Below the pieces are notes generated by a model, which saw only the letters and a program-made list of their open reading frames with translations, did no database searches and was not told the origin of the DNA. Both the position numbers and the translations under genes were made by a program. Of a DNA stretch of 64,000 nt, positions 20,429 to 35,732 are shown in pieces; position 1 is the stretch's first letter, and every line of letters starts with the position of its first letter. The DNA is from a virus: positions 2,665 to 66,664 of IMG/VR virus record IMGVR_UViG_3300027973_000003; one strand, 5' to 3'.

Positions 20429-20785
20429 TCATGCACTTTTTCTTTTAAGGCGCTCGTCGTGGTGGTGTATCCGATGGCAGTTAGCGCACAGGACTATGCA
20501 TTTTTTAATCTCTTCGTAGGCTTTGGCGAACTGTCCGTTAGATATGAACTGGTGGACACTGCCTGATTTTGTACTGGGGTCTTCGTGGTGAAAGTCCATT
20601 GCTGCTATATGGCTGTACCCGCATGCCGTGCACTTAAGCGTGGCTTTGAAGATGTACCACTTTAGTCGCTCTTTAATCTTAGTGGTCTTGGTTGCTACCT
20701 TGCTTTTGTCTTTGTTCTTTGAATAGTACGTTCGGCTATATCCAGCCTGTTTTTCTTTTTTAACTTTTGGGTCCTTATACGGCAT
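20429..20785 (-). CDS. HNH endonuclease
   Basis: CTACG...DFHH...CIVLCANCHRIHH. Confidence 0.85.
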   Translation of the reverse strand: MPYKDPKVKKEKQAGYSRTYYSKNKDKSKVATKTTKIKERLKWYIFKATLKCTACGYSHIAAMDFHHEDPSTKSGSVHQFISNGQFAKAYEEIKKCIVLCANCHRIHHHDERLKRKSA

Positions 20786-21206
20786 CGTTTAAGCGGTATG
20801 TTTTTATTGGCTCGCTACTGTTTGCATCTACATTGCATGCCCACTTTACCGATTCTTCCGCTGTCAACCCCATGCGCATACAGACTTCTGCTGCCATGGC
20901 TCCAGACCCAATTGCCATAAATGATCTGATTCTTTCCCACTCCAGGTCGTCCCCACAGGAGAACAATCCATCTTTAGTTAGCTTGAGAAAGGAGCTGTCC
21001 GATTTTAGTTTTGGTTTTGTTTTGCTCTTCTTGCCCAGGTAATCTAAGACCTTCTCGGCATCCACGTAGTTACCAGCTACGCCCATCCAGCCACCATCTA
21101 TTGCAAATACTTTTTCTTCAAAGTACTTAATCCCCGAATCAGAATCCGTGAACTGACTATCTGCTACCAGTATCTTCTTATCCCAGTCACCGATGATTGT
21201 CGTCAT
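20775..21206 (-). CDS. Ntn-hydrolase (proteasome/HslV-like) peptidase
   Basis: N-terminal MTTII, ADSQ, GVAG and AIGSGA motifs. Confidence 0.7.
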   Translation of the reverse strand: MTTIIGDWDKKILVADSQFTDSDSGIKYFEEKVFAIDGGWMGVAGNYVDAEKVLDYLGKKSKTKPKLKSDSSFLKLTKDGLFSCGDDLEWERIRSFMAIGSGAMAAEVCMRMGLTAEESVKWACNVDANSSEPIKTYRLNDAV

Positions 21207-21314
21207 TTCTGTGGTACCTATCGTTAGGGTTATTAAGCATACTTTGAATCAGGCTATCAATCGTACTAAACCACTGAATCACTTTCATGCCATCATGCTG
21301 CATGATCGTAAAAC

Positions 21315-21470
21315 TCATTCTTCTTTCTGCCCTACAACCTTATAGACTTGATTGACTATATTTAAAACGTGTTCTATATCCTCGGGCGTTAACTGGCCCA
21401 TCAGCTGCAATATCTTTATTACTGCAACGTCGTTGTTTAGTGGTACTGGTTTGACTAGGTTTTCAATCAT
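21315..21470 (-). CDS. hypothetical protein
   Basis: 51 aa from MIENLV, ATGA-coupled to the upstream ORF. Confidence 0.45.
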   Translation of the reverse strand: MIENLVKPVPLNNDVAVIKILQLMGQLTPEDIEHVLNIVNQVYKVVGQKEE

Positions 21471-21613
21471 TTGGTAGCAATCAGATAGGCGCCGTAATTG
21501 GCAAAACAATATCCTGAGTACATGCAGGCTAAACCCATATTGCCTTTGAGCGCTTGCTCCGCAGCTATATAAGCGTAGATTAATCCCGTCACAATAATCA
21601 GCCAAGAACTCAT
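21467..21613 (-). CDS. small membrane protein
   Basis: 48 aa MSSWLIIVTGLIYAYIAAEQ...YSGYCFANYG, two hydrophobic segments. Confidence 0.55.
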   Translation of the reverse strand: MSSWLIIVTGLIYAYIAAEQALKGNMGLACMYSGYCFANYGAYLIATK

Positions 21614-22015
21614 AGCAAAATGGTATCCCCTTGATATGTCAGATATTTTACAAAAAAATATACCCCCCTGGGGGTATTGAAATAAAAAAGATAGGGGGTG
21701 TGTTTCTATGAGCACCTTGAGCATGTGCTTGTGGATACTTTGATAGGGGGTGGGGGGTTAAGTACTTATTGCCGATTACATCGGGTCCACGACGTGCGGG
21801 CTTAAGAGGGCCAAGTCGACTAAGAAGCCAAGTTCTACCTAGTTGTAGCTATGTAACACAAATAGCACAAAGTTCTTAAACGAAGGTATCTAACGTGCAA
21901 ATTATTGAGTAGAGGGGACTTAGGATTCCTTTTTTTAATTTTGGGGTCATGGGGTTGTTACTGCAAACCTTTTCTAACATTGTTAGCCATAGCCCTATTT
22001 TTGTTTCCAAAGAAT

Positions 22016-22044
22016 TTGCTTTAGGGGTTATTTTGTGTTATAAT
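22016..22044 (+). promoter_or_regulatory. strong sigma70 early promoter
   Basis: TTGCTT-N17-TATAAT with TGn extended -10. Confidence 0.8.
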
Positions 22045-22121
22045 ATAACCATGCAACAGAGAAGTAAAGGTCAATGTTAGATACCTCTTAAATCTAACAA
22101 TGTTAGAAAAGGAATTAAATC

Positions 22122-22592
22122 ATGGAAAAGACTTTATTGGCTCAACGTTTAGAAAATGCTCGTAACGCAATAGTGGCAAACGCTGTAAATACTGGTGAAC
22201 TCATTGGCTCTTATGCTAGTGCAATGCAAGAATCATTTGACATGGTGCTAGAAAATGGTGAGGTTGTTAAGTGGTTTAATCTCAAGGGCAAGGCTAAAGT
22301 AGGTGTTAAGGCTGAATATGCTTTATTCGTTGATGCCCTAAAATCTGCTGACCTCGAGGGTAATAAGTATGTTTACTGGCAGAGAGTTAAGGAAGCAAGT
22401 GGTTATCAAACTGCAGGTAATACAGTAAAAGCAAGCCTGACTATTGATGCCCGTAACCTTGCTGACCTTAAAACGATTTTGGGTCGCATCTTGAATAACG
22501 AATCAGACGATGATGCTGAATTGTCAAATCAAGCAAAATCACACCTAACCGAAGCATTCTCAATTCTAGGTGGTGACATTACCAAAATCTAA
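22122..22592 (+). CDS. hypothetical first early protein
   Basis: 156 aa, AAGGA RBS, own promoter and terminator, flanked by palindromes. Confidence 0.75.
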   Translation: MEKTLLAQRLENARNAIVANAVNTGELIGSYASAMQESFDMVLENGEVVKWFNLKGKAKVGVKAEYALFVDALKSADLEGNKYVYWQRVKEASGYQTAGNTVKASLTIDARNLADLKTILGRILNNESDDDAELSNQAKSHLTEAFSILGGDITKI

Positions 22593-22610
22593 CAATGTTA
22601 GATTTGACCG

Positions 22611-22670
22611 AAGCCCTGATTCGTCAGGGCTTTTTTTGTGCCCATTCGGTTCGCACCGCGTGGGTTTTTT
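22611..22670 (+). terminator. tandem rho-independent terminators
   Basis: AAGCCCTGA-TTCG-TCAGGGCTT + T-run; second CCCA...TGGG hairpin + T6. Confidence 0.85.
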
Positions 22671-22729
22671 GTTTCCGCCTAGCAGAATAATGATAGTTCC
22701 AAGAAACGATAGGGCGAAACGAGGGAATT

Positions 22730-23160
22730 TCCTTTGTTAGAGGCAAAACTAACATTGTTAGAAACTGGGCTACAAAACTCTAACAATAGAAGCCTTTATA
22801 ATCAAGGACTTACAAGCATTGTTAGAAAGTGAAAAAGGACTCTAACAATATAAAAAGCCTTTAGAATCAAGGACTTACAAGCGTTTTTGGGGGTATTGTT
22901 AGAAAATGGAGAAAAACTAGGGAACGGAATCTGAAAAGAGCCTTTCACGCAGTGCAAACTTCCAGCACTAAAGCAAAAAGTTCTGCAAGCCTCTCTCTAT
23001 CTCTATTTTCTCTAACTTTATAACAATATATCTTTTTCTAACACCAAAGCCTTTTACTTATTGGATTTTACATTGTTAGAATTTCTTTTTATTTTTCTAA
23101 CAATACCCTGTTTTTTCTAACATTACCCCACTTTTTCTAACATTGCTCACTCAACCCAAA
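22730..23160. other. origin-like / nucleoprotein assembly region
   Basis: non-coding and AT-rich; TTTTTCTAACA half-sites at 20-bp spacing, a 16-bp inverted repeat, two WATCAANNNNTTR (IHF consensus) sites in a direct repeat. Confidence 0.55.
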
Positions 23161-23162
23161 AC

Positions 23163-23191
23163 TTGCAATAGGTCTAACAATGTGATACAAT
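23163..23191 (+). promoter_or_regulatory. sigma70 early promoter with palindrome-like operator in the spacer
   Basis: TTGCAA-N17-TACAAT with TGn; CTAACAATGTGAT between the hexamers. Confidence 0.75.
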
Positions 23192-23274
23192 ATAGGTATG
23201 AGTGGGAATATGTTTCTTATCGTTTACATTTATCAGCCGTTCCTAACAATGTTAGTTTTTACAAGGAGAAGTAT

Positions 23275-23373
23275 ATGAATCGTTTTATCGCCATCGTTGC
23301 CTTAGTAGTTGCACCACTTTATTTCGTGATGCATTTTGTATTGTTTCTATTAGCTAACACAGGAGTCAAATAA
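23275..23373 (+). CDS. 32 aa single-TM early peptide
   Basis: AAGGAG RBS; MNRFIAIVALVVAPLYFVMHFVLFLLA. Confidence 0.6.
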   Translation: MNRFIAIVALVVAPLYFVMHFVLFLLANTGVK

Positions 23374-23678
23374 TGGGCAAACTAAAACAGTCAATCATTG
23401 CAGAGCAAGAGAAGCGCCAGTTCGTATTCGACTTTGACGATGAGCCACAGACCATGCAACGCAAACTTACTACTACTCAAATGGTGGCAAGTAACTGGGT
23501 TCGTTACTACCATGTCAATAAACTTAAACCGAACACAGAGAAGTATAAGCAAGCGCAACATGCATACCTTTGTGGTATTGGCTTGATGCTAGGTGAGCAG
23601 ATGCCAACGCTATTGTCTTTGTGTTTATCGAGTGGCAGAGATATTGCAAGTGTAATCGAACGAACACAACCAAGATAA
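23373..23678 (+). CDS. hypothetical early protein
   Basis: 101 aa, AGGAG RBS. Confidence 0.65.
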   Translation: MGKLKQSIIAEQEKRQFVFDFDDEPQTMQRKLTTTQMVASNWVRYYHVNKLKPNTEKYKQAQHAYLCGIGLMLGEQMPTLLSLCLSSGRDIASVIERTQPR

Positions 23679-23699
23679 TTTTGACAGGAGAATCTAACA

Positions 23700-23906
23700 A
23701 TGTTATACGGAATTGATTGTGATTGCGGTATGGAGATTGATGCAAGGAGAGTGGCTATTGGCTACTTTGTATGCCTAGATTGTGGTGACAAGCAAGCTAA
23801 GGCTAAGAAGTTTGTAGTCCAAATACCTTACGGCAAAGGCGCATACCAGTATATTCACAACCCGATGGAAGATTTGAAATACACCAACCCAAAGAGGACA
23901 ACATGA
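23700..23906 (+). CDS. DksA/TraR-like C4 zinc-finger protein
   Basis: CDCGMEIDARR...CLDC. Confidence 0.55.
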   Translation: MLYGIDCDCGMEIDARRVAIGYFVCLDCGDKQAKAKKFVVQIPYGKGAYQYIHNPMEDLKYTNPKRTT

Positions 23907-23988
23907 ACTACTCAGAGTATTTAAAAGCTAAGTATGGCTCAGACAAGTTTGCTGATGTGTTACGCAAATGCATAGAGGAGAGGAAGAA

Positions 23989-24258
23989 ATGAAAGTAAAG
24001 GACAAAGACTATTACGAGTTATGCGACATGGTATTTAGTCTAGGTGCAGAGCAACGCAAGAAAGTTCTAACATTGTTAGACGACATGCAAGACCCAAAAG
24101 ACCGAGGAACAATCTTTGACCACGCATTGACCAAAGCCTATGAGTATGCAGAGAGTGGGCGAAACGACAAGCTAGCCAAAGAGGGCATTGCATGCGATGC
24201 ATACCGAGATGGATTTTTAGATGGAGTGGCTTACAGAATGGGTGGGTTCAATGCATAA
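23989..24258 (+). CDS. hypothetical early protein
   Basis: GAGGA RBS before MKVKDK; AYRDGFLDG motif. Confidence 0.6.
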   Translation: MKVKDKDYYELCDMVFSLGAEQRKKVLTLLDDMQDPKDRGTIFDHALTKAYEYAESGRNDKLAKEGIACDAYRDGFLDGVAYRMGGFNA

Positions 24259-24439
24259 GTATAAGTATTACAAAGGGCAACGCATTAGTGAGTTGCTTAC
24301 GCAGATAGATGAGTTGAGTAGGGCATTGGAAGATAACAATGATGCCTATAAAAACGAGACGCAAGCATTAAGAGCAATGGAAGCAATGGCTACGCTAGCA
24401 ATAGCAAAGGCAAAACTAACCGCACTACAAGGAGAATGA
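24251..24439 (+). CDS. hypothetical early protein
   Basis: 62 aa helical ORF coupled to neighbours. Confidence 0.5.
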   Translation: MHKYKYYKGQRISELLTQIDELSRALEDNNDAYKNETQALRAMEAMATLAIAKAKLTALQGE

Positions 24440-24440
24440 C

Positions 24441-24623
24441 ATGATTAAAAGTCTTGACGATATTTTGTTGGATGCAGAAGATGCGTTCTATGAGTTTGAT
24501 GATGAGCAAGGCAATATCTTTGACGATGATGACCGCATGCTATTCATCGAGGGATACAACCAAGGAGTTGAAGCATTTCGCAAGCAAGCCCTAACATTGT
24601 TATACAACATGAGGAGTGAGTGA
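24441..24623 (+). CDS. small acidic early protein (possible DNA mimic)
   Basis: AAGGAG RBS; D/E-rich DAEDAFYEFDDEQGNIFDDDD. Confidence 0.6.
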   Translation: MIKSLDDILLDAEDAFYEFDDEQGNIFDDDDRMLFIEGYNQGVEAFRKQALTLLYNMRSE

Positions 24624-25119
24624 GATGGGATACCGAAGCACGATAGCGTTTTGCTTATCAGTCAATGAGGAGAACAGGGAGAATGGGGATGGCACTCATT
24701 CTCTTTACTTTGATAGGGCTAAGTTCAAAGAGATGGTCGGGTTCATGAAACTAACTAAGTTCTATGAGATTGCGACAGACTCAGAGTATGACTTGCTTAG
24801 TAAGGAAAGCCCGCACCTTGGATGGGCAGAGGGCAAGATTGTTTTCTATGCAGAAGATTGGAAGTGGTATTCCGACTATCCATTGGTGGTGGCATTTAAC
24901 GATATGTGGAATTCGATGCAAGACATAGAGGGTATAAGCGGATACTTCTTGCGAGTAGGCGAGGGTGATGGCAACCAGTTGGATATAGACGAGGAAGAAT
25001 TCGGAGATGACCCTGACTACCAACACTTTAGCCCCCATGCATCTATGTATTTTAGTGGCGAAGGATTTTTAGGAGAGCAAGATACGAACGAAGAAGCGAA
25101 GGAACAGGTGACTACCTAA
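24616..25119 (+). CDS. acidic hypothetical early protein
   Basis: MGYRS...WKWY...FLRVGE motif, acidic tail. Confidence 0.65.
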   Translation: MSEMGYRSTIAFCLSVNEENRENGDGTHSLYFDRAKFKEMVGFMKLTKFYEIATDSEYDLLSKESPHLGWAEGKIVFYAEDWKWYSDYPLVVAFNDMWNSMQDIEGISGYFLRVGEGDGNQLDIDEEEFGDDPDYQHFSPHASMYFSGEGFLGEQDTNEEAKEQVTT

Positions 25120-25196
25120 CATTGTTAGGAATATTAGCGTATGTGTATGGTAGTTACAAATAGTAGCGTAGGCATATAACAATTAAGGAGTTATAA

Positions 25197-26132
25197 ATGT
25201 TTGGATATAGTAGAAACTCAGGCATCAGTTGGATGCGTGATTATGGGGATGCGTTCCATAAGTATCAGTCCACTACCGATATCAGAGGTAGGGTAAAAGA
25301 ACCTAAGCGCCCGCTTGGTCAGCGCAAGAGTGTCGATATGTATTCCATCAGACTCAAAGACGATGGCTCGATGGGTGTTGAGTGTGTGCTTTATCAGACC
25401 CCAGTTGTTACATTCTACCCAACAGGGCTAGTTGAATTGCGTAGTGATGGGTGGGCAAGTGCATCTACCGCTAGCTTTATCAATGAGGTTACAAACTACT
25501 CGGCTCGTATATTTAACGGCTCACTATGTGTAAGCGTAGCTGGTATAGAAAGTAGGATAGATGAAGGTGTCTTAAAGATAGAGGGTAATCGCATCCTTAA
25601 TCTAGTTGCGGATAAGACCCATTCAGTTATCAGAAGCGAAGCTAACAAAGTTAGAAAACAGTATGCCGAGTTCCTTAAGTATGGTTGTGCATTGGTGCGC
25701 CTCAAAGCTGAGGGCTTTCTTCTAGCAGAGTATGAAGAAACCTTTGGCAGAACTAGCAATGGTTCGTTTGTTGGTTTGCCCGAGGGTATAAGCAAATCAT
25801 ACAGGACTAACTTTATTGATGATGTGCATGCGTTCTTTGCATTGGCTAAGGAAAGCGGGGCGGATAAGCATGTTGCTCATTACAAAGCAGTCTTAGCTAT
25901 GGCTTGGGCATTCGGCTCTAATACTTATAGTGGAAGCTATACCGCAACAGGCACTCATATAAACGAGGCTAGCTTTAAGAGAGCATTCGATAACTTAGTG
26001 CTTGGCTATCACAGAGATGAGGTATTTGTGGAGAGGGTAAGAGAAGAAGGACAAGTAAAGAAAGACCCCTATGGCAAATACTATGAGAGTGGATGGGGAA
26101 GATTCCATTCTAACAATGTTAGTCAAACCTAA
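25197..26132 (+). CDS. hypothetical early protein
   Basis: 311 aa, AAGGAG RBS; LYQTPVVTFYPTG motif. Confidence 0.7.
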   Translation: MFGYSRNSGISWMRDYGDAFHKYQSTTDIRGRVKEPKRPLGQRKSVDMYSIRLKDDGSMGVECVLYQTPVVTFYPTGLVELRSDGWASASTASFINEVTNYSARIFNGSLCVSVAGIESRIDEGVLKIEGNRILNLVADKTHSVIRSEANKVRKQYAEFLKYGCALVRLKAEGFLLAEYEETFGRTSNGSFVGLPEGISKSYRTNFIDDVHAFFALAKESGADKHVAHYKAVLAMAWAFGSNTYSGSYTATGTHINEASFKRAFDNLVLGYHRDEVFVERVREEGQVKKDPYGKYYESGWGRFHSNNVSQT

Positions 26133-26136
26133 GAAC

Positions 26137-26165
26137 TTGCATTGGGATACTAATTGTGTTACAAT
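26137..26165 (+). promoter_or_regulatory. sigma70 early promoter
   Basis: TTGCAT-N17-TACAAT with TGn; downstream AGTGGGAAT shared with the 23163 promoter; palindromes on both sides. Confidence 0.75.
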
Positions 26166-26294
26166 ATATGTATAGTGGGAATTTATTACATCATAAGTGG
26201 TGAATTTCCTAACATTGTTAGGTGTAGTGTAGTAACAGTAGTATGTTTATAGGCAGCCGTAGTAATCATCAATCAATTAAAACGAGGAATCAAA

Positions 26295-27362
26295 ATGGCA
26301 GAAATCAATTTCGGTAAGACTGTATCAATCGCACAGGCTTGCAACATCATTCTTTCAACACCAATGAACCGCTACTTCTTAAGAGGTGAGCCAGGGATAG
26401 GCAAATCATCTATCCTTAAGACGCTATCCGCAAGCCTACCTGACCATGAGGTGTCATACATTGATGTGCCGAACATGGACTTGGGTGATATCGCTATGCC
26501 CGTTATCGACAGAGAAACAAAGACTACTGCCTATTACCCTAACAGTAGATTCAAGATTCATCTTGGCAAGCCAGTCATAACAATGTTAGATGAGTATACG
26601 AAAGGCGCAGACCCTATTAAGAACATGCTCCACCCGATGCTCGAGGTAGCTAACCCACGACTAGGTGATATCTCATTACTGCCTGAGTCTATTACTTTCT
26701 TGACAGGCAATCTATCTAGTGATGGTGTAGGCGACTCCCTGAAGGCGCATAGTATGAATCGTATTATTCCGCTACATGTAAGAAAGCCTGATGCAGATGA
26801 GTGGATTGGTTGGGCTATCAATAACGACATAGCACCTGAGGTTATCGCATGGGTTAAACAGTTCCCGCATGCAATGGCTAGCTATCTTGATGGCTCACAG
26901 TCAGACAATCCGTATATCTTTAATCCAAAGAAAGTGCAGTCAGCATTCGTATCGCCTCGTTCATTGGAGAGGGTATCTAACATTGTTAAGGTCAGGTCAC
27001 AGTTAGATGCCGATAGCTTGATATGTGCAATGAGTGGTGCGGTGGGCGAATCAGCTAGTAGGGATATGCAAGCATACATAGAGTTCTCAGACCAGCTTCC
27101 TACATGGGAGTCGGTAGTTGCAGACCCACGACATGCCAAAGTTCCCGAGGGTGCGGGCGCTTGTGCAATTATTGTATTCGGTGCTATCGCTAAGGTTACT
27201 AAGGACACCATCAGTCCGTTCATGCAATACCTTGAACGCTTTGAACCCGAGTGGCAAGCATGCTTTGCTATCAACATTGCGAAGTCCCCAAGCAAGCAGT
27301 CAGTTGCATTTAGTTCAGCTAAGTTTGCTGATTGGGTGCAGAAGAATGAAGATTTGTTATGA
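26295..27362 (+). CDS. MoxR-like AAA+ ATPase
   Basis: Walker A GEPGIGKS, Walker B MLDE, TGN sensor, SPRSLE. Confidence 0.85.
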   Translation: MAEINFGKTVSIAQACNIILSTPMNRYFLRGEPGIGKSSILKTLSASLPDHEVSYIDVPNMDLGDIAMPVIDRETKTTAYYPNSRFKIHLGKPVITMLDEYTKGADPIKNMLHPMLEVANPRLGDISLLPESITFLTGNLSSDGVGDSLKAHSMNRIIPLHVRKPDADEWIGWAINNDIAPEVIAWVKQFPHAMASYLDGSQSDNPYIFNPKKVQSAFVSPRSLERVSNIVKVRSQLDADSLICAMSGAVGESASRDMQAYIEFSDQLPTWESVVADPRHAKVPEGAGACAIIVFGAIAKVTKDTISPFMQYLERFEPEWQACFAINIAKSPSKQSVAFSSAKFADWVQKNEDLL

Positions 27363-27535
27363 CCGAGGAGAAAGTCAAACAACAGGGCAGACCACGCCTT
27401 GATAAGGATACTAAGGTTAGCAGAGAAAGGGTAAGGCAGATACAGAACCATGCCCTAGGTAAGCTACGCAAACTTATGTATGAGCGTGGGTATAAGTTCG
27501 AGGATTTTTTTGATGACAAGCAAAAGGGAAACTAA
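27359..27535 (+). CDS. 58 aa sigma70 region 4.2-like peptide (not in ORF track)
   Basis: MTEEKV...VSRERVRQIQNHALGKLRK; ATGA overlap with the AAA gene, stop 2 nt before the VWA gene start. Confidence 0.65.
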   Translation: MTEEKVKQQGRPRLDKDTKVSRERVRQIQNHALGKLRKLMYERGYKFEDFFDDKQKGN

Positions 27536-27537
27536 CA

Positions 27538-28761
27538 ATGTTAGACATAGTAGAAGATAAGCAAGCAGTAAAGGACAAGGAAGAACGCAGACTGAGCAAG
27601 ATTAAGATTGCCATTATGCGTAACCCTAAATTCGCTTTGTGGTCAGGCTTGATGACTGTTGGTAAAACTAGAGTAGTAGATAGTATCTTTGTTACCACAG
27701 CGAACACGAATGGTCGTGATGAGAATTACAGTCGTGATTTCATTAAACGCTTAGACGACAAAGAGTTGGCATTCGTGGTGTTACATGAAACATTGCACAA
27801 GGCTTATCGTCATCTGTTTATATGGCGCAAGTTGTGGGAAGAAAACGCACAGATTGCAAACATGGCATGCGACTATGTAATCAATCTTCAGCTAGTGGAC
27901 ATGGATAAAGACCAACAAATGCTAGCTATGCCTATGCATGAGGGTAAGGTAGTAGGGCTAGTCGATGAACGCTTTCGTGGCATGAACGCTAAGCAAGTAT
28001 TCGACATACTCAAAGAGGAAGAACCTGAGGGTGGGTATGGCGGTGGCGATGGTGGCTTTGATGAACACGATTGGGAAGGTGCGAAAGAACTAACCGAGGA
28101 GCAGAAGAAACAATTAGCCAAAGAAGTAGACCAAGCGATTCGCCAAGGACTTATTGCCCATGAGAAGTTAGTAGGCAAGGGCGGCGGTGGACTTAATCGT
28201 GAACTCGAGGACTTGATGCACCCTGAGGTGGATTGGAAAGAGGTGCTGAAAGAATTCGTTCGTTCTACTTGTAATGCCAAAGATGCTAGCAGTTGGCGCA
28301 GAGTCAATCGTCGCTTCCTCGGTAGTGATATGTATATGCCTACTCTAATAGGGGAGAAGGTAGGGCATCTCGTTATCGGTGTAGATACAAGTGGCTCAGT
28401 AGGGGGCAAGGAACTATCAGAGTTTCTTTCCGAGGTGCAAGGCATTGCTGAGGAAGTCCATCCCGAGAAAGTCGATTTGATTTATTGGGATGGGGCGGTG
28501 GCTGGTCATGAAGAATACGATGGCAACACAGTTTCTAACATTGTTAGTTCTACCCAACCAAAAGGCGGTGGTGGCACAGACCCGACTTGCGTGATGCATT
28601 ACTTGAAAGAGAACGCAATTAGACCTGAGGCAATCATCATGCTGACGGATGGATATATCGGTAACTGGGGAGACGAGTGGGATGCGCCAATTCTATGGAC
28701 TATTGTCAGAAATTCAAAGACTTATGCCCCAGTTGGTAAAACAATTCATATTAAGGAGTAA
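27538..28761 (+). CDS. metallopeptidase-like + VWA domain protein (DUF2201-like)
   Basis: HETLH zinc motif, NMACDYVIN, MIDAS DTSGS...GGGGTD...LTDG. Confidence 0.85.
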   Translation: MLDIVEDKQAVKDKEERRLSKIKIAIMRNPKFALWSGLMTVGKTRVVDSIFVTTANTNGRDENYSRDFIKRLDDKELAFVVLHETLHKAYRHLFIWRKLWEENAQIANMACDYVINLQLVDMDKDQQMLAMPMHEGKVVGLVDERFRGMNAKQVFDILKEEEPEGGYGGGDGGFDEHDWEGAKELTEEQKKQLAKEVDQAIRQGLIAHEKLVGKGGGGLNRELEDLMHPEVDWKEVLKEFVRSTCNAKDASSWRRVNRRFLGSDMYMPTLIGEKVGHLVIGVDTSGSVGGKELSEFLSEVQGIAEEVHPEKVDLIYWDGAVAGHEEYDGNTVSNIVSSTQPKGGGGTDPTCVMHYLKENAIRPEAIIMLTDGYIGNWGDEWDAPILWTIVRNSKTYAPVGKTIHIKE

Positions 28762-28765
28762 TCGT

Positions 28766-29008
28766 ATGAGCAAAGTAGTGGTAAGTCTTGGGTGGAATAA
28801 CGAGTATGTATTAGATGCAGACAAGGCTCTAACATTGTTAGATTTACTTAAAGATGCAGAGATATACAAGGAGCAATACCAACCGATAGAAAAGGGCGGG
28901 ACTAGCTACCATATATTTCAGCATGACAAGGATGTATGCAACATGCGTGTGCTTAGCAAGAACTTTTATAACCTAGCGAAGTTGGCTGGTAAACCTGAGG
29001 AGAAGTGA
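28766..29008 (+). CDS. hypothetical protein
   Basis: AAGGAG RBS before MSKVVV. Confidence 0.6.
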   Translation: MSKVVVSLGWNNEYVLDADKALTLLDLLKDAEIYKEQYQPIEKGGTSYHIFQHDKDVCNMRVLSKNFYNLAKLAGKPEEK

Positions 29009-29009
29009 T

Positions 29010-29876
29010 ATGAGTATTTCGTCATCTGCAGTATTAGTAGAACTAAACATTAGTGTATGGACTGCTAACAAGTTGGACAAAGGTGCAACCGATAGTGTGC
29101 TTGCAAGTAATTCGGCAAGTAAAGATAGCGCACAAGTGCGTAAGAACCTAATGGCTGGCACAGACAAGCGTAAGAAGATAGCTGACTACGCTGCTAGGGC
29201 TAGGCTCTACCACAATCAGACTACATTATCGTGGTCAGACAAAGGTGCGAGGCTTCTTCCTACTAGCTTGTTTATGGACTACAAGGCGAACATGAATGTG
29301 TATGAGAAGAATATGAACGTAATGATTGCCGACTTCTATACAAACTATGCAGACCTGATTGAGTTATCAAAGCATCACATGGGCGACTTGTTTAATCCTT
29401 ATGACTATCCTGATATTGATGAGTTGCGTAGCAAGTTTGGATTCCGATTGGTATTCTCTCCGTTGCCTGAGAGTGGGGACTTCCGCTTGGATATTCCGCA
29501 ACAAGATATGGTCGAGATGCAAGACAAGTATGAGTTGGCATTTAACGACAGGCTAGCAGATGCAATGCGTGAGCCATGGGAGAAGTTGCATAAAGCGTTG
29601 AGCCATCTATCTGACAAGCTGACTGACGAAGAGAATCAACAGGTGGATGGTAAGAATACTAAGCGTTATCACGATACCCTTATCACTAGCAATCAGGAGT
29701 TGTGCAGTCTATTGACCCACTTGAATGTAACCAAAGACCCATTGCTAGAACAAGCACGACGGGAGTTGGAACTAACAATGTTAGGTTTAGATATTGAAGA
29801 TATCAAGGATAGCGCAGACTGCCGTAAAGAAGTGAAGTCTAAGGTAGATGACATTCTTAACAAGTTTAATTGGTAA
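29010..29876 (+). CDS. DUF3150-like protein of MoxR/VWA modules
   Basis: VLVELNISVWTA.KLD...W.DKGARLLP...DYP...SKF; helical C-terminus. Confidence 0.6.
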   Translation: MSISSSAVLVELNISVWTANKLDKGATDSVLASNSASKDSAQVRKNLMAGTDKRKKIADYAARARLYHNQTTLSWSDKGARLLPTSLFMDYKANMNVYEKNMNVMIADFYTNYADLIELSKHHMGDLFNPYDYPDIDELRSKFGFRLVFSPLPESGDFRLDIPQQDMVEMQDKYELAFNDRLADAMREPWEKLHKALSHLSDKLTDEENQQVDGKNTKRYHDTLITSNQELCSLLTHLNVTKDPLLEQARRELELTMLGLDIEDIKDSADCRKEVKSKVDDILNKFNW

Positions 29877-29885
29877 GGGGGACTT

Positions 29886-29984
29886 ATGTTTACTGTGTTA
29901 GTAACAATACTTGCAATAACAGGGGCGGTGACTTGGGCTTTTGCCATATATGTTTTGGTTAATATTTATTTAGGAGAGAAGTAA
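29886..29984 (+). CDS. 32 aa single-TM peptide (not in ORF track)
   Basis: AGGGGG RBS; MFTVLVTILAITGAVTWAFAIYVLVNIYLGEK. Confidence 0.5.
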   Translation: MFTVLVTILAITGAVTWAFAIYVLVNIYLGEK

Positions 29985-30845
29985 ATGACATACGACAATG
30001 TAAAACTTAAATCAACAGACAGGGGCGATGGGGTCAAGATAGATTCAAAGATTGATTCCTTCCTGCAACCCTTAATTGAGAAGCTAGCACTCAAGTATCC
30101 ACAATGGACATTTGAAGAGGACAACACTAACTATAAGTGGGACAACATCAACGGCAAAAGCGTTAAGTCAGACCTTACTGCTACATGCTTTAAGGTAATG
30201 GATAAGCGTGAGGAGTTGGGTTCTATATATACGCAAACTTACCACTCTAGCCATGGGCAACAGTTTTGTGTAGATAACTTCCGAGTGCAACAGTTGCGTG
30301 AGCGTGGCAACGGCATGAAAACAATCCACGAAAAGAAAGCCCTCAAGCATATAGATAAATTCTTTGGTAAGAAGAACTTAGATGAGAAGTTAGCTGATGC
30401 AAAAAACCAAGCGCAACAATGTGTCAGTCGTGTATCTAATGACTTATCCAGTAAGTTTGATTGGGATTGGAATAGATTTACCGAGTTATCAAAACAATTT
30501 ATTGTGCAAAAACATTGGGAAGAATTTGTAGGTTATGTAGACCAAGCTATCCCTAATGCAAATTTTGATATAAATAAAATGCCCGAAAAGTTTGAGCGTA
30601 AGCTAGCTGGTCAGCAAGTTAAAGATGCATTTAATAAAGACGAACATTATCTTATATATGTGGATGGTCAAAACTATGCTATATTTCGCAAGAATGAGCC
30701 TACTCAAATTAAAGTAAGCGAAGAGTTGCCTGAGTTTATCCGTAGAAGTGTGGGCATGCTCAAGCTAGTAGATGACAACCAAATACTTAGCGGTATTGGG
30801 TGTCGTGTTAACGCAACCACTTATGTTGTGTTGCAACAAATCTAA
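29985..30845 (+). CDS. hypothetical protein
   Basis: 286 aa, AGGAG RBS; C-terminal LPE...VGMLKLV...GIGCRV. Confidence 0.7.
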   Translation: MTYDNVKLKSTDRGDGVKIDSKIDSFLQPLIEKLALKYPQWTFEEDNTNYKWDNINGKSVKSDLTATCFKVMDKREELGSIYTQTYHSSHGQQFCVDNFRVQQLRERGNGMKTIHEKKALKHIDKFFGKKNLDEKLADAKNQAQQCVSRVSNDLSSKFDWDWNRFTELSKQFIVQKHWEEFVGYVDQAIPNANFDINKMPEKFERKLAGQQVKDAFNKDEHYLIYVDGQNYAIFRKNEPTQIKVSEELPEFIRRSVGMLKLVDDNQILSGIGCRVNATTYVVLQQI

Positions 30846-30863
30846 CATTGTTAGGAGAGTGCT

Positions 30864-31070
30864 ATGTTATTTAAAAAGAAATTATCAGTAGTAGCAGAGT
30901 CAAAAAAAGAAAGGGTAATCCCTATGATACTTGATAAGAACTCAAGGTTTGTATACACAGGCGGTTCTGATGTATTAAAAACTTTTAAGAAGTATGGGTT
31001 CGTTCCGCCTAGTGAGTATCGTGATGACTATTTATTTAAACTTAACAGAGAAACCTCGAAAGGAGAATGA
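30864..31070 (+). CDS. hypothetical protein
   Basis: AGGAG RBS; DVLKTFKKYGFVPPSE. Confidence 0.6.
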   Translation: MLFKKKLSVVAESKKERVIPMILDKNSRFVYTGGSDVLKTFKKYGFVPPSEYRDDYLFKLNRETSKGE

Positions 31071-31279
31071 TGGATGAGGTAATAAGAAAAGGTAGGGGCA
31101 AAGCAAGTAAGCCAGCAATGGTTTACTTTCCCCTTAGAGTTAGCGTAGAAGTAGCACAGTTTTTTGAGGCTTATCCGAACAAAAGCAAAAAGATTCGGGA
31201 AGTCTTAGAGCAATTTATAAACAAAGAAAAAGGACTTAAAGATGAGAACAATAAGCAAGAAATCACAGAAGTTAAATGA
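31067..31279 (+). CDS. putative ribbon-helix-helix DNA-binding protein
   Basis: KGRGK arm, alternating strand VYFPLRV followed by two helices. Confidence 0.5.
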   Translation: MMDEVIRKGRGKASKPAMVYFPLRVSVEVAQFFEAYPNKSKKIREVLEQFINKEKGLKDENNKQEITEVK

Positions 31280-31670
31280 CTATCTAGCAGAGAACCCTGA
31301 TGTAAAGGCTAGCATGGTAGCCAAGTTGTTTAAAGCAACAGTGCAGTCTATATATCAGCGTAGGGCTAAACTAAAGTTGGCAGCGGGTAAAAGTGCAAAG
31401 CGTGGTCGCCCTCGCCAGATACCTTCAACGCTTGTGCCTAACGCAGTAATGTCAATGGCAGTATATGCGGATGATAAGGTGAATAGCCCGAGCCACTATA
31501 AAGTAGGTGGTATTGAGACTATCGACTTTATCGAAGCTAAAGGTTTGGACTACCATTTAGGTAATGTAGTCAAGTATATTAGTCGTGCTGAGTTCAAAGA
31601 TACTAAGTTGGAAAACCTAAAGAAAGCACAATGGTATCTCAATCGTGTGGTATCTAACTTAGAGAAATAA
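31242..31670 (+). CDS. DUF3310 (SaV-like) protein with N-terminal HTH-like segment
   Basis: VNSPSHY..GGIETIDFI...GNVVKYISRA...LKKAQWYL; N-terminal ASMVAKLFKATVQSIY. Confidence 0.75.
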   Translation: MRTISKKSQKLNDYLAENPDVKASMVAKLFKATVQSIYQRRAKLKLAAGKSAKRGRPRQIPSTLVPNAVMSMAVYADDKVNSPSHYKVGGIETIDFIEAKGLDYHLGNVVKYISRAEFKDTKLENLKKAQWYLNRVVSNLEK

Positions 31671-31674
31671 TATT

Positions 31675-31811
31675 AGGGGGGTAAGTTTACTCGCTACTAC
31701 TAGTAGCCTTGTAGATGCAAATGTGGTGGCTCTCGGCTAGTTCCCCCCAAGACATTTCGACTAGCCGAATCCTTATAGCCCGACGAGGGGCGGGTAATCT
31801 ACATACCCCCT
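31675..31811 (+). ncRNA. candidate structured RNA (multi-stem, pseudoknot)
   Basis: five complementary stems plus AAAUGU/ACAUUU pseudoknot pairing in a 190-bp intergenic gap; strand assumed from the operon. Confidence 0.55.
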
Positions 31812-31826
31812 CATTTTCTTCTTGCC

Positions 31827-31854
31827 TTGACAAAGTCAAACCCTGTGTTATCAT
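31827..31854 (+). promoter_or_regulatory. middle promoter with TTGAC-AAA-GTCAA palindrome over the -35; leaderless mRNA
   Basis: TTGACA-N16-TATCAT with TGn; ATG 6 nt after the -10. Confidence 0.7.
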
Positions 31855-31860
31855 AAGGGC

Positions 31861-32175
31861 ATGGCACAAACACCCGAAAAAAAAGTAAAAGACAAAGTTG
31901 TAAAGATACTAAAGAAGCATGGTATCTATTACTTCTTCCCCGCAACGCATGGCTTTGGGCGCTCAGGTGTGCCTGATGTTGTGTGTTGCTTTAACTCATT
32001 ATTCATGGGCATAGAATGCAAGGCTGGAACTAATAAGCCTACTGCACTACAAGAAAAAGAAATGGCAGACATCCGTAGTGCGGGTGGAGTGACCTTTGTT
32101 ATCAACGAAACGAATCTAACAATGTTAGAAAGTTGGATTACGGATGAAAATTTTGACTTTGATGGGAGATGCTAA
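31861..32175 (+). CDS. VRR-NUC domain nuclease / Holliday junction resolvase-like
   Basis: TPEKKVK...GVPDVV...IECKAG..KPTALQ. Confidence 0.85.
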   Translation: MAQTPEKKVKDKVVKILKKHGIYYFFPATHGFGRSGVPDVVCCFNSLFMGIECKAGTNKPTALQEKEMADIRSAGGVTFVINETNLTMLESWITDENFDFDGRC

Positions 32176-32540
32176 TGAATCAAGGAGTTCAGATTTTATT
32201 AGAGCGTATGCGTAGCAACCCTGATGAATTTATACCGACTGTGCATGGGTATTACCCTAAAAAATGGCAAGACATTTTACTTGCCATTCAAATGCGAGCC
32301 GAAGGGGGTAAGGACTACCAAGACCAACTACCTTTCCTCAGCAATGAGGAAGTCAAAGCCCTATGGGATGGTATGCAACAACTACAGGGCGAGCTGTTTA
32401 CTAAGAAGGTTATGAATATTCTGCTACAAGATGCAACGGAACTATCATCTTCTTTCACACAACTCTCGGACGATACGATTTATATTAAAAACGATGGTGC
32501 AGTATCAGGAACAATTACTGGAAAGTTGCGTTACCCATGA
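32169..32540 (+). CDS. hypothetical protein
   Basis: MNQGVQILLERMRSNPDEF; coupled to neighbours. Confidence 0.6.
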   Translation: MLMNQGVQILLERMRSNPDEFIPTVHGYYPKKWQDILLAIQMRAEGGKDYQDQLPFLSNEEVKALWDGMQQLQGELFTKKVMNILLQDATELSSSFTQLSDDTIYIKNDGAVSGTITGKLRYP

Positions 32541-34360
32541 AAATATACTGCATTGATTTTGAGACCTATTACTCTCAGGCCTACTCATTAACTAAATTAA
32601 CCACCGAAGAATACATCCGTGGAGAGGAGTTTGAGGTGATTGGTGTTGCCGTACAAGAACAAGGTGGGGACCCGCAGTGGTTTAGTGGTACTCAAGAAGC
32701 CACAAAGAAATGGCTAGAACAGTTTGAGTTTGAGAACAATCTAGTATGTGCCCACAATGCCATGTTTGATATGGCTATCCTTAGTTTTGTATTTGATATA
32801 AGACCTAAGTCCATTGCGGATACTCTATCAATGGCAAGAGCAATATACGGAACTGAAGTTGGCGGAAGCCTTAAAGCATTAGCTGAATACCATGCGATTG
32901 GTGTTAAAGGCACAGAAGTATTACAGGCATTAGGCAAGCACAGGATTGACTTTACCCCCGAAGAATTGCGTTCCTATGGCGAATACTGCAAAAATGATAC
33001 TGCGCTAGCCATGCAGTTACTAGAGATATTGGGCGAAAGTTTTCCTGTGGTTGAGTTTAAGTTGATTGACTTGACCATCCGTATGTTTACTGAACCTACT
33101 CTTCAGTTGTACAAGCCCTTGTTAGAAACGCACCTCAAAGCGGTACAAGATAAGAAAAGCGCCCTTCTTGATAATGGATTGCTAACCAAAGAGGCACTAC
33201 TGAGTAACGATAAGTTTGCTGATTTGCTAAAGACATGTGGGATAGAACCACCTACTAAAATAAGTCCAGCTACAGGAAAAGAAACCTGGGCATTTGCTAA
33301 AACGGATGAGGGCTTTAAAGCATTGCTTGAACACGAGAATCAAACTGTGCAGTTATTAGCAACAGCTCGTCTTGGCATTAAGTCTACACTAGAAGAAACA
33401 AGGACTGAACGCTTTATTGGTATTGCGGATCGGGGTTTACTACCTATACCACTACGCTACTATGCGGCTCATACAGGGCGGTGGGGCGGTGATGACAAAG
33501 TTAATTTACAAAACCTACCAAGAAGTTCACCACTTAAAAGTGCAATTCGTGCCCCTAGTGGTTACAAGATAATTGATAGCGACTCATCGCAGATTGAGGC
33601 TAGAACATTAGCGTGGTTGGCTGAACAGAATGATTTGGTTGATGCATTTGAAAGGGGTGAAGATGTTTACAAGATCATGGCATCGTCTATATATGGCAAG
33701 AGCGAAGAAGAAATTACGAAGGATGAAAGGTTCGTCGGGAAGACTACAATTCTCGGATGTGGCTACGGCATGGGCAGTAAGAAATTCCAAACCCAACTCA
33801 AGACTTTCAATGTGGAAATTGAGGAGGGGGAATCCAATCGTATTATCCAAGTCTACCGCGAGACTTATGACTGGATTCCTGCTCTTTGGAGAAAAGCGGG
33901 GTTAGCTTTAGATGCCATCATCAACAATCAAAGCATGTCGTTAGGTCGGGTTGGAGTGCTAGAGGTTGAAGGTATAAAAGGCATTCGTCTGCCAAATGGG
34001 TTGTATATGAAGTACCCAAACCTACGCAAGATAACTAATGAACAAGGTAAGACCGAATATGTATACGACACCAAAAAAGGTAAGGCAACTATACCTAACA
34101 GAATATATGGTGGGAAGGTTATTGAGAACGTATGTCAGGCTTTAGCTCGCATTATTATTGGCGAGCAGATGCTACAAGTAGCAAAGAAATACAAGGTTGT
34201 AATGACTGTGCATGATGCGATTGCTTGCGTAGTACCTGAGGCAGAAGCAAAGACAGCTCAAGAATACGTCGAGTTGTGTATGAAGATGCGACCAAAGTGG
34301 GCATTAGAGTTACCACTTAGTTGTGAGTCGGGCATTGGCAATAGTTATGGTGAGTGCTAG
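32537..34360 (+). CDS. polA: DNA polymerase family A with 3'-5' exonuclease
   Basis: IDFETY, AHNAMFD, HTGRW, NLQNLP, DSSQIEAR, KTTILGCGYG, VHDA. Confidence 0.95.
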   Translation: MKIYCIDFETYYSQAYSLTKLTTEEYIRGEEFEVIGVAVQEQGGDPQWFSGTQEATKKWLEQFEFENNLVCAHNAMFDMAILSFVFDIRPKSIADTLSMARAIYGTEVGGSLKALAEYHAIGVKGTEVLQALGKHRIDFTPEELRSYGEYCKNDTALAMQLLEILGESFPVVEFKLIDLTIRMFTEPTLQLYKPLLETHLKAVQDKKSALLDNGLLTKEALLSNDKFADLLKTCGIEPPTKISPATGKETWAFAKTDEGFKALLEHENQTVQLLATARLGIKSTLEETRTERFIGIADRGLLPIPLRYYAAHTGRWGGDDKVNLQNLPRSSPLKSAIRAPSGYKIIDSDSSQIEARTLAWLAEQNDLVDAFERGEDVYKIMASSIYGKSEEEITKDERFVGKTTILGCGYGMGSKKFQTQLKTFNVEIEEGESNRIIQVYRETYDWIPALWRKAGLALDAIINNQSMSLGRVGVLEVEGIKGIRLPNGLYMKYPNLRKITNEQGKTEYVYDTKKGKATIPNRIYGGKVIENVCQALARIIIGEQMLQVAKKYKVVMTVHDAIACVVPEAEAKTAQEYVELCMKMRPKWALELPLSCESGIGNSYGEC

Positions 34361-34965
34361 TGGGCAAGATTAATAAACACTACAACGATTATCAAGACCG
34401 TGAAGTATTGCGGTCATTGGGTACACATCCTTGGACTGGAGCTTTACCAGCAACGTATTATATTGAGGAAGATATTACTTATGAAACAGTTGACCCTGAG
34501 ACTATTGAAGCGTTGATTGAGTATAGAACTGCTGAGGATGATATTGAATTAAATGACCTTAGACGAATTACACAAGATATGCTAGATTCAATGACCCGTA
34601 GAGAAGCTAAAATATTGCGTTTGCGGTTTGGTATTGGGCTTGCGCAAGAAAGCACTCTTGACGAGATTGGTCATGTGTTTAATTGCACTAGAGAACGTAT
34701 TCGTCAGATTGAAGCTAAAGCATTGCGCAAGATGCGTCACTTTAGTAGGAGCAATCAGCTTAGGGTGTTTGTTAATGATGATGCTACTTGTTCATTATGG
34801 GATAGGTTGTTAGAACCAGTCCCCACGATAGATGATTATGAAGGTTGGGGATACATACAGGCTGTTGAGTTTCTTGAACGAGACATGGTTGCTTGGAGAA
34901 AAAGAAATGACGAAGCAATTAAAAAATTAACAGACGCTAAAAAGAATTTAAGAGGACTAATATGA
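34354..34965 (+). CDS. sigma70 region 4 domain protein
   Basis: LDSMTRREAKILRLRFGI...TLDEIGHVFNCTRERIRQIEAKALRKMRH, RpoD region-4-like. Confidence 0.85.
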   Translation: MLVGKINKHYNDYQDREVLRSLGTHPWTGALPATYYIEEDITYETVDPETIEALIEYRTAEDDIELNDLRRITQDMLDSMTRREAKILRLRFGIGLAQESTLDEIGHVFNCTRERIRQIEAKALRKMRHFSRSNQLRVFVNDDATCSLWDRLLEPVPTIDDYEGWGYIQAVEFLERDMVAWRKRNDEAIKKLTDAKKNLRGLI

Positions 34966-35165
34966 ACAATGAACCAGTAGTGTGGACTGCTTGCTTGGAT
35001 TGTGGCAAAAGGGTTACAGGGGATTCTATTCATACTTGTTCACCACAGTTAAAGACACTAACAGATGAAGAAATAATTGAGGTGTGGAATGCGTTTGAAA
35101 GAACTGACAACATACCAATTATTGATTTTGCTAGAGCAATACTAAGAAAGGCACAAGAGAAATGA
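34962..35165 (+). CDS. hypothetical protein
   Basis: CLDC..., LTDEEI...FARAILRKAQEK motif. Confidence 0.6.
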   Translation: MNNEPVVWTACLDCGKRVTGDSIHTCSPQLKTLTDEEIIEVWNAFERTDNIPIIDFARAILRKAQEK

Positions 35166-35359
35166 ATGATGAAGATTTAAGACAGGCTTTTGCTTTAATG
35201 CTAACGGCTGGGTTTGCAATTAAAGGCGAGATAAACCCAAAAGCAATATGGGATATAGCAGATATGCTTGTTGAGGCAAAAAATAATAATGAAGAAGAAC
35301 TTGGAATCGCAGCGGTTAAAACAAAAAGGCAATATGTCCGAAAAACTGACTATAAATGA
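35162..35359 (+). CDS. hypothetical protein
   Basis: DLRQAFA...IADMLVEA motif; ATGA coupling. Confidence 0.6.
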   Translation: MNDEDLRQAFALMLTAGFAIKGEINPKAIWDIADMLVEAKNNNEEELGIAAVKTKRQYVRKTDYK

Positions 35360-35731: not shown

Positions 35732-35732
35732 T

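Follow-up and report, generated by a model that had tools for sequence, protein, structure and literature searches.

A 13-bp palindrome array confined to the early arm of a phage genome as a candidate operator system for early-gene silencing

Why does one 13-bp palindrome stand 20 times, perfect or with a single mismatch, within 10 kb of the genome of a freshwater phage? The question is raised by the IMG/VR virus record IMGVR_UViG_3300027973_000003, of which bases 2665-66664 were analysed (64,000 nt of 66,664 bp, called the window below; coordinates are those of the window). The two arms of this genome diverge near position 21,800, with terminase, portal and other late genes running leftward and early and replication genes running rightward to ~43,100. 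The array of the palindrome, CTAACAWTGTTAG, begins in the divergent gap and ends ~420 bp before the gene of a family-A DNA polymerase (32537-34360). In this study, we analysed the number and placement of the copies, their recurrence in relatives and the factor that may read them.

In the window, 15 perfect copies of CTAACAWTGTTAG were found, and none in each of 100 dinucleotide-preserving shuffles. With up to two mismatches allowed, there were 23 matches (15 perfect, five with one mismatch, three with two; shuffle mean 2.97, maximum 8), all inside 21974-32128. When the complete record of 66,664 bp was scanned with one mismatch allowed, the same 20 sites and nothing further were returned; a control pattern, CTAACAWTGTTAG read backwards, had no match in this record. 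Count and confinement of the palindrome are far beyond chance. The original prediction, made from the letters of the stretch, had named 19 copies, 15 perfect and four with one mismatch. All 15 perfect copies were recovered exactly where it had placed them, the one-mismatch copies number five, so that the total is 20, and the confinement holds genome-wide, no site lying beyond 21974-32128 in the full record.

The sites are enriched at gene borders, where nine of 20 have their centre no more than 30 bp from a start or stop (3.3 expected, P=0.003). Their spacing is regular, with 350-560 bp in 11 of the 19 intervals between sites (3.3 expected, P=0.0002; both values from random-placement simulations). 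Half of the sites (10 of 20) are not wholly intragenic, though 85% of the span is coding, and in long early genes internal copies maintain a spacing of ~0.5 kb. As had been claimed, the motif also supplies codons at gene borders: its TAA ends four genes and its ATG opens two (Table 1). Intragenic copies are read in frame 0 (L-T-L/M-L) or frame 1 (N-I/N-V), again in agreement with the earlier reading, while frame 2 occurs only at the four copies whose TAA is the stop codon.

Three sigma-70-like early promoters, P1 to P3 (TTGCxx, 17-nt spacer, TGnTAnAAT), are readable in the arm; a promoter and terminator scan gave counts no higher than in shuffles, and individual sites alone were used. Each of the three promoters has a site at ~+43 to +51, and around P1 and P3 the sites form pairs 99-120 bp apart. 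At P2, the spacer itself contains a two-mismatch copy, a perfect site follows at ~+51, and three half-sites spaced by 20 bp lie upstream. For comparison, relatives were collected with the DUF2201 protein of the arm as query; of the 278 places confirmed in IMG/VR, the best 80 loci were analysed. The layout at P1 (site, TTGxxx, 17 nt, TGnTAnAAT, ~45 nt, site, ribosome-binding site, ATG) is kept in five relatives (L006, L028, L039, L016 and L052), with the same site up- and downstream of a sigma-70-type promoter; in L052 the palindrome is a 14-bp variant with a two-base centre.

Several features bear on the form in which the element is read. Centres with A and with T are equally common (10 copies each), though the genes of the arm all lie on one strand, and the flanks prolong the symmetry, with T at position -1 in 11 of 20 and A at position +1 in 11 of 20. 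Upstream of P1, the divergent gap contains the first site (21974), which is outside any early transcript. In 115 site-by-locus comparisons with relatives, 1333 of 1380 specified bases of orthologous sites were identical (96.6%) versus 7843 of 9855 bases (79.6%) of the 45-nt flanks of the same sites, a comparison slightly biased by local alignments that contain the site itself and made with a score threshold demanding ~60 matched flank bases. Because of the balanced centre, the symmetric flanks, the use of all frames, the copy in the divergent gap and this difference in conservation, the element appears to be read as double-stranded DNA by something symmetric, which would imply a dimeric reader, and purifying selection appears to act on the DNA of the sites. 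Both the selection on DNA and the dimeric reader, the latter on the grounds of the 10:10 centre and the t...a flanks, had been part of the original prediction and gain support here. Centres of one and two bases mixed within one genome, together with orphan half-sites, fit a protein which reads CTAACA half-sites. For contigs from four runs, only 40 of 731 differences were shown, too few for asking whether the sites are spared.

Arrays of this kind recur in the clade. The commonest palindrome with 5-nt arms was present in at least five copies in 55 of the 80 loci and in at least eight copies in 38, and 34 loci had at least three perfect copies of CTAACAWTGTTAG itself. Variants elsewhere among the 80 loci include ATAACAnTGTTAT, GTAACAnTGTTAC, CTAACTnAGTTAG, CTAACAnnTGTTAG, TAAACAnTGTTTA, GTGTTTAAACAC, ACTGTCTGACAGT and TGTTAGGGAnGTCCCTAACA, several genomes mix one- and two-base centres, and G009 has all four centre bases; in ~10 of the 80 loci an array was not seen. 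Across the 55 loci, eight complete relatives and the Planktothrix phage Pag-Yong1, the arrays are lineage-specific and nearly all lie in the early arm. In G001, G002 and G004-G008 they are restricted to an early arm of 9-17 kb, with few outlying copies (Table 1); for G006, G007 and G008 together, 36 of 37 perfect sites lie within it. The best palindrome of G003 has only four copies. This genome, the record behind L056, also contains two GC-rich palindrome families with a 66-bp period at 21910-24130, CGTGCCTGTCACAGGC and CAGCCGACGGCTTC, which are unrelated to the early-arm motif.

Among cultured phages, a DUF3150-like gene as in the arm studied here was found only in Pag-Yong1 and the equal-length records MinM2 and Pra-JY27. 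Pag-Yong1 (L104, OL906435, bases 15000-50000) carries 19 GGTTCAGSCTGAACC-type palindromes in 35,001 of its 65,014 bp; 16 of the 19 lie outside annotated genes though 87% of the stretch is coding, and two lie in the late arm. Its first gene had no match to the first-gene family A4. The set of MoxR-like AAA ATPase, DUF2201 and DUF3150-like genes (26295-29876) is present in this cyanophage, too. Sites, DNA-level symmetry and conservation, placement at promoters and clade-wide recurrence with lineage-specific sequences are matters of observation.

What could such an array do? On balance, and with somewhat more than even confidence, we favour an operator array for a dimeric regulator that shuts off early transcription in a phage without integrase. 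A symmetric, dimeric, sequence-specific protein would bind the palindromes as double-stranded operators and thereby control the early transcription units. Sites bracketing promoters (-56/-71 and +43 to +51) would block initiation, and pairs at 99-120 bp would permit a repression loop. The further copies, at gene junctions or ~0.5 kb apart, could raise local occupancy, serve as a reservoir keeping the local concentration high and act as roadblocks to elongating polymerase. Once the protein has accumulated, the whole 10-kb early arm would be silenced, at the early-to-middle switch. Protein binding, repression rather than activation, and this timing are what we infer; the binder is most likely phage-encoded. 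Of the three functions proposed originally, silencing of early genes fits best because the sites bracket three early promoters and spread along operons, while segregation gained no support, with no ParB_N, integrase or resolvase found. Matches to these three were absent from the genome, whereas control genomes match; the thresholds were E ≤ 0.01 for PF02195 (ParB_N) and for PF00589 (Phage_integrase), which all control genomes match and of which a very divergent copy is possible. For lack of such matches, the phage looks virulent.

Most proteins named beforehand as possible binders did not hold up. In the ribbon-helix-helix (RHH) protein 31067-31279, the base-facing strand residues vary among phages with an identical motif and recur under other motifs, and the recognition helix of the helix-turn-helix (HTH) in 31242-31670 varies freely among same-motif phages. 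The HTH_3 protein 39748-39990 was not found in two of six complete array-bearing genomes, and its recognition helix is near-identical in three genomes with different motifs. Many same-motif loci lack a further candidate, the 58-aa sigma-region-4 miniprotein; in these loci the gap between the AAA and DUF2201 genes is only 7-37 bp. The claim for 22122-22592 stood in part: the very divergent family of this gene always opens the array and is bracketed by sites, but no DNA-binding signature was found in it. A tblastn search with this first gene gave nothing at E ≤ 1. One might speculate that its product is an immediate-early anti-defence protein.

As the lead candidate, the product of 29985-30845 emerged, with a tentative claim that is better judged possible than probable. 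Of 86 sequence sources searched, 78 contain it, among them all six complete genomes in that set, and its AlphaFold model is confident (predicted local distance difference test, pLDDT, 91.5). The predicted homodimer scored 0.61 versus 0.00 for the best control, a mark reached by 20 of 30 proteins solved as same-chain pairs and by one of 23 whose solved form is a single chain. At least 95% of contacts are common to the three runs, and the partner pLDDT is 85 or higher. In this model, the interface is formed by a helical hairpin (132-216) and the C-domain, and both N-terminal alpha/beta domains are free, a predicted geometry that would be the one needed by a reader of palindromes.

Several points weigh against silencing by such an operator array, or against its proposed binder. 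Repression and activation would look alike at the sequence level, and the system does not appear to be a classical immunity system, because the phage has no integrase match. The Pag-Yong1 sites, which are GC-rich, nearly all located between genes and in two cases part of the late arm, would also fit an RNA-level hairpin. None of the arm's recognisable DNA-binding proteins passes a consistency test, ortholog tables contained no protein conserved solely in same-motif genomes, and matched-divergence covariation gave no clear signal (largest differences: 31242-31670, +4.7 identity points; 29985 C-domain, +3.2). Relatives without arrays also carry the 29985 gene. Structural comparison of its N-domain (~residues 24-130) with VIA-align gave a frataxin/YdhG-like protein (9t2w; Z 7.2, root-mean-square deviation (rmsd) 2.9, 89 residues), E. 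coli YjbR (2fki; Z 5.6, rmsd 3.2, 82 residues) and the C-terminal domain of T4 MotA with DNA (5jlt; Z 4.8, rmsd 5.4, 89 residues), all of them values common for unrelated models in VIA-align, where models without a true match typically reach a best Z of 7-8. Foldseek returned nothing for the model at E ≤ 0.001, and PF04237 and MotCF were absent from the Pfam matches of 28 family members. [quoted passage not shown]

Known multi-operator systems offer points of comparison. In mycobacteriophage L5 and other cluster A phages, more than 20 sites of 13 bp for one protein, the repressor gp71, lie at promoters and in short intergenic gaps, and the repressor at these operators and stoperators has been proposed to stop both initiation and elongation (PMC9283540). 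The L5 sites are asymmetric, bound by a monomer with two domains, oriented with transcription and distributed over the whole genome of a temperate phage (PMC9283540). The array resembles L5 in its many copies at promoters and in short operon gaps (20 sites, three promoters) and in a site specificity that evolves between relatives. Unlike those of L5, the sites here are palindromic and orientation-free, occupy only 10 kb of a 66.7-kb genome and are often intragenic, and the genome has neither an integrase match nor a recognisable repressor. SPBRE of phage SPbeta is a 15-bp element in promoter regions of ~10 phage genes that is bound by the master repressor MrpR; it was spotted in silico 24 years before its binder, which has an unexpected, tyrosine-recombinase-like fold (PMC10516654). 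SPBRE is confined to prophage promoter regions, and in contrast the genome studied here had no Phage_integrase-family match that would point to a tyrosine-recombinase fold.

An inverted repeat in many copies within the phage early region is shared with phiC31. There, highly conserved inverted repeats are bound by repressor c; phiC31 is temperate, unlike the phage here as far as it appears, and its repeats measure 17 bp and are intergenic. A language-model search placed the product of 22122-22592 near the Phage_Repressor_c cluster with a score of 0.79, which is below the lead threshold ('often chance'), and PF25746 (repressor c) had no match at E ≤ 1 in any of 18 members of the 22122-22592 family. 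At the gal operators OE and OI of E. coli, a palindromic pair ~100-120 bp apart around the promoter supports a repression loop with a LacI-family repressor and HU. Two identical palindromic sites at this distance, upstream of and within the transcribed region, are also found here, the difference being that gal has a single pair and the array three promoters and ~14 further sites. The sites matS, read by MatP, and OB, read by KorB of RK2, are 13-bp palindromes with a free centre base in 12-23 copies which define a DNA domain or a regulon. Multiplicity, length and free centre base are the same here; the matS domain covers 800 kb of a host chromosome, its reader MatP being a host protein of enterobacteria, and KorB belongs to the ParB family. 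The resemblance to matS pointed out in the original prediction is one of layout only: specified positions both outside and inside the motif differ from GTGACRNYGTCAC, and the array occupies 10 kb of a phage arm; unlike in the KorB system, no ParB_N protein was found in the genome. Judged by its sequence features, the array seems to be a case of multi-operator silencing with real differences, namely strict palindromes, confinement to the early arm, regularly spaced intragenic copies and no integrase or repressor gene found. There is a sizeable chance that a new DNA-binding family stands behind it.

No alternative accounts for the conserved promoter bracket as simply as operators do. The first one concerns the non-coding hub after the first gene (Table 1), which contains 11 orphan CTAACA half-sites, of which two are split palindromes and three are direct repeats TTTTTCTAACAWT at 20-bp spacing directly upstream of P2. 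The 520-bp non-coding stretch 22640-23160 after the first-gene terminator shows split palindromes of the form CTAACAATA, ~30-45 bp, TATTGTTAG. Rfam found nothing in this stretch, for which an origin, a regulatory hub and a small RNA gene are all conceivable. Its sequence is similar to that of L016 and L012. If the hub 22735-23180 were an origin, the dispersed palindromes might titrate or load an initiator, e.g. the DUF927 primase-helicase (40055-42907). P4-type primase-helicases bind repeated origin sequences, the hub has inverted half-sites besides the three at 20 bp, its 2-kb window has the lowest GC content in the genome (0.382), and the primase-helicase's C-terminal region is conserved in five of six complete genomes. 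We nevertheless consider initiator sites unlikely. The hub arrangement is kept only in the closest relatives (L005, L006 and L012) and not in more distant ones, whereas arrays are clade-wide; 20 sites over 10 kb in a conserved promoter-bracketing layout are not an origin architecture; and G005 carries an array, with no homologue of the primase-helicase detected.

A host protein, either a global regulator or a nucleoid protein, might instead read the sites and couple early expression to the state of the host, or shield or compact the DNA. This fits the searches, which gave no phage-encoded binder, and the occurrence of the identical 13-mer as an operator-like pair in unrelated bacteria. Pairs of CTAACAWTGTTAG 111-126 bp apart were found in five bacterial contigs from metagenome-assembled genomes (L105-L109; 49-73% GC). 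In two from Bacillota (L106 4364-4488, L109 2689-2812), the pair lies in a TetR/flavodoxin divergent promoter, and in the other three (L105, L107 and L108) near other genes; a Tepidiformaceae chromosome has the 13-mer within a 108-109-bp tandem repeat before a Schlafen/AlbA_2-HATPase gene. The five contigs contained no homologues of the early-arm and replication proteins used as queries and gave no host clue. Since the same pairs occur at bacterial TetR/flavodoxin divergent promoters, the 13-mer would seem to be an ordinary operator-type sequence. On a Pseudomonas plasmid, TAACATTGTTA is bound by MtvA, an antitoxin of MazE type (PMC11826091); this match was treated as a coincidence. Against a host reader, loci with the identical motif span 40.5% to 53.4% GC, suggesting different hosts, and close relatives differ in centre length or outer base, which a co-evolving phage factor explains more easily. 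Reading by a host factor is a slightly weaker proposition than initiator sites.

Less probable again are junction markers for gene-cassette shuffling, at which short boundary identities would promote recombination between co-infecting relatives, as has been proposed for the PeSL elements of T4-type phages. The enrichment of sites at gene boundaries, their position almost exactly at core-gene junctions in G004 and G002 and at junctions in Pag-Yong1, and a gene content in the first 3 kb which is highly variable across relatives would suit this idea. Homology breakpoints relative to nine relatives, however, are mostly 50-200 bp off the sites, 13 bp is short for homologous recombination, and no site-specific recombinase was found in the genome. 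Also, shuffling leaves unexplained the promoter bracketing and the intragenic copies, whose positions in core genes are conserved among relatives.

An RNA element in the early mRNA, i.e. a hairpin, nuclease site or repressor site which sets stability or translation at gene junctions, is very improbable. T4 RegB and RegA are models for mRNA-level control of this sort; many copies overlap stops, starts or 5' leaders, and the intergenic, GC-rich copies of Pag-Yong1 would form more stable stems. In the genome studied here, the hairpins of the sites are weak (-1.8 to -7.0 kcal/mol), three of six being no better than shuffles, and the five one-mismatch copies break the palindrome with no compensating changes. 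The unbiased centre base on a one-strand gene arm and the first site outside any early transcript count against the RNA level as well. Equally improbable is a role in domain organisation, partition or protection of first-entering DNA: the regular spacing of ~0.5 kb would suit it, and if packaging starts near terminase and runs along the late arm, the early arm might, by analogy with headful phages such as P22, be the last part to be packaged and the first to enter the cell. Yet no ParB_N-family protein was found in the genome and nothing links the sites to ejection. The exact terminal repeat of 127 bp in the record is probably the overlap of a circular assembly rather than a physical terminal repeat because its length equals a common assembler word length.

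Beyond the single genome, a wider version of the operator reading can be formulated, which as a whole we regard as rather doubtful. A lineage-specific 'palindrome code' would mark the early arm across a large clade of virulent freshwater and cyanobacterial phages (>270 IMG/VR contigs with the DUF2201 core gene), with sites at promoters, at junctions and about every 0.5-1 kb. It would be read by a previously unrecognised dimeric DNA-binding family from the early core, with 29985 as the lead, and the arm would be silenced or organised as one domain. Specificity would be diversifying between relatives, perhaps to avoid cross-repression in co-infection.

A few temperate phages are known to keep a prophage silent through arrays of one operator spread over operons. 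Here, the same logic would operate in phages without integrase and would be partly written into coding sequence. The literature searched contained no text with the 13-mer CTAACAWTGTTAG, none on Pag-Yong1 and, under the terms used, no description of such arrays in virulent phages. If silencing through operators is correct, the motif would provide a sequence handle on early-gene timing in abundant freshwater phages, early regions of metagenomic phage genomes could be delimited by the motif alone, and a new DNA-binding protein family would probably be present among the conserved early proteins without known fold or function. The array-bearing cultured cyanophage Pag-Yong1 could serve as an experimental system. 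The precedent of SPBRE and MrpR indicates that decades may pass before the binder of such an element is found, and that this binder can be an unexpected one (PMC10516654).

Table 1. Positions of palindrome copies, promoters and genes in the window, and of arrays in complete relatives (positions of the respective record)
Feature	Position	Strand	Remark
Perfect site, upstream operator of P1	21974..21986		centre ~-71, divergent gap
P1, TTGCTT, 17 nt, TATAAT after TG	22016..22044	+	drives first early gene; read from sequence
Perfect site, downstream operator of P1	22094..22106		~+49, directly before ribosome-binding site of 22122
First early gene, 156 aa	22122..22592	+	no known family; in relatives always first gene of array
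Perfect site	22589..22601		TAA is stop of 22122-22592
Intrinsic-terminator-like hairpin with T run	22610..22643	+	after first gene
Non-coding hub, 450 bp	22735..23180
Perfect site	22749..22761		intergenic
Two-mismatch copy	22813..22825		right half of split palindrome
Two-mismatch copy	23067..23079
P2, TTGCAA, 17 nt, TACAAT after TG	23163..23191	+
Two-mismatch copy	23174..23186		in P2 spacer
Perfect site	23243..23255		~+51 of P2, 34 nt before ATG at 23277
One-mismatch site	23694..23706		ATG is start of 23700-23906
Perfect site	24067..24079		inside 23968-24258, frame 0
One-mismatch site	24591..24603		at end of 24441-24623, 25 nt before start 24616
Perfect site	25116..25128		TAA is stop of 24616-25119
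Conserved early core gene, 311 aa	25197..26132	+	confident predicted fold without solved analogue
One-mismatch site	25642..25654		mid-25197-26132, frame 1
Perfect site, upstream operator of P3	26110..26122		centre ~-56, within end of 25197-26132
P3, TTGCAT, 17 nt, TACAAT after TG	26137..26165	+	read from sequence
Perfect site, downstream operator of P3	26209..26221		~+43
MoxR-like AAA ATPase	26295..27362	+	conserved early core
One-mismatch site	26577..26589		inside ATPase gene, position kept in relatives
One-mismatch site	26977..26989		inside ATPase gene, position kept in relatives
Perfect site	27532..27544		TAA stops 27359-27535, ATG starts 27538-28761
DUF2201 protein	27538..28761	+	metallopeptidase-like and VWA-like domains; conserved core
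Perfect site	28535..28547		inside DUF2201 gene, frame 1
Perfect site	28829..28841		inside 28766-29008, frame 0
DUF3150-like conserved core gene	29010..29876	+	name from annotation of MinM2 homologue
Perfect site	29772..29784		inside 29010-29876, frame 0
Candidate binder, 286 aa	29985..30845	+
Perfect site	30842..30854		TAA is stop of 29985-30845
Hjc-like nuclease	31861..32175
Last perfect site	32116..32128		inside 31861-32175 (Hjc-like nuclease)
G001 array, 12 copies	28728-38656		64.5 kb record
G002 array, 11 copies of TAACAnTGTTA	47136-64589		65.0 kb record; GTAAC-arm listing adds outlier 33203
G004 array, 12 copies	58400-64423 plus 812 and 1996		64.7 kb record; wraps record end
G005 array, 9 copies	43302-51697		59.1 kb record
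G006 array, 12 perfect copies	5423-16433		66.6 kb record
G007 array, 16 copies	15 in wrapped 15.7-kb stretch; 1 at 37758		64.2 kb record
G008 array, 9 copies	20586-29640		63.6 kb record

The genes beneath the array are mostly without an assigned function. Assignments exist for the MoxR-like AAA ATPase, the 58-aa sigma-70 region-4 miniprotein, DUF2201, DUF3310 and the Hjc-like nuclease; the conserved early core consists of 25197, the AAA ATPase, DUF2201, the DUF3150-like gene and 29985. A megablast of the region had no match among cultured phages, and Rfam and tRNA scans of the window found none. Profile searches of 29985, 25197 and 29010 against PDB sequences gave nothing credible, and Pfam scans of 28 and 29 family members from these profiles gave scattered single matches only. 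Among the sequence sources searched, 63 contain the product of 25197-26132. The AlphaFold model of this protein (pLDDT 90.7, predicted template-modelling score 0.78) had no Foldseek match at E ≤ 0.001 and a best VIA-align Z of 3.8, and it may represent a new fold.

The 58-aa protein of 27359-27535 comprises little beyond the sigma-70 region-4 HTH, and a separate 203-aa sigma-like protein (34354-34965) follows the DNA polymerase gene. The two could be a sigma mimic or anti-sigma factor and a late sigma factor. AT-hook-like basic GRP/GRG stretches adjoin the HTH or RHH in 27359-27535, 31067-31279 and 31242-31670 (QQGRPRL, KGRGKASKP and KRGRPRQ). A 2005-aa open reading frame without Pfam match (43159-49176, minus strand) closes the late arm and is weakly conserved, with 20-40% identity, in seven complete relatives.

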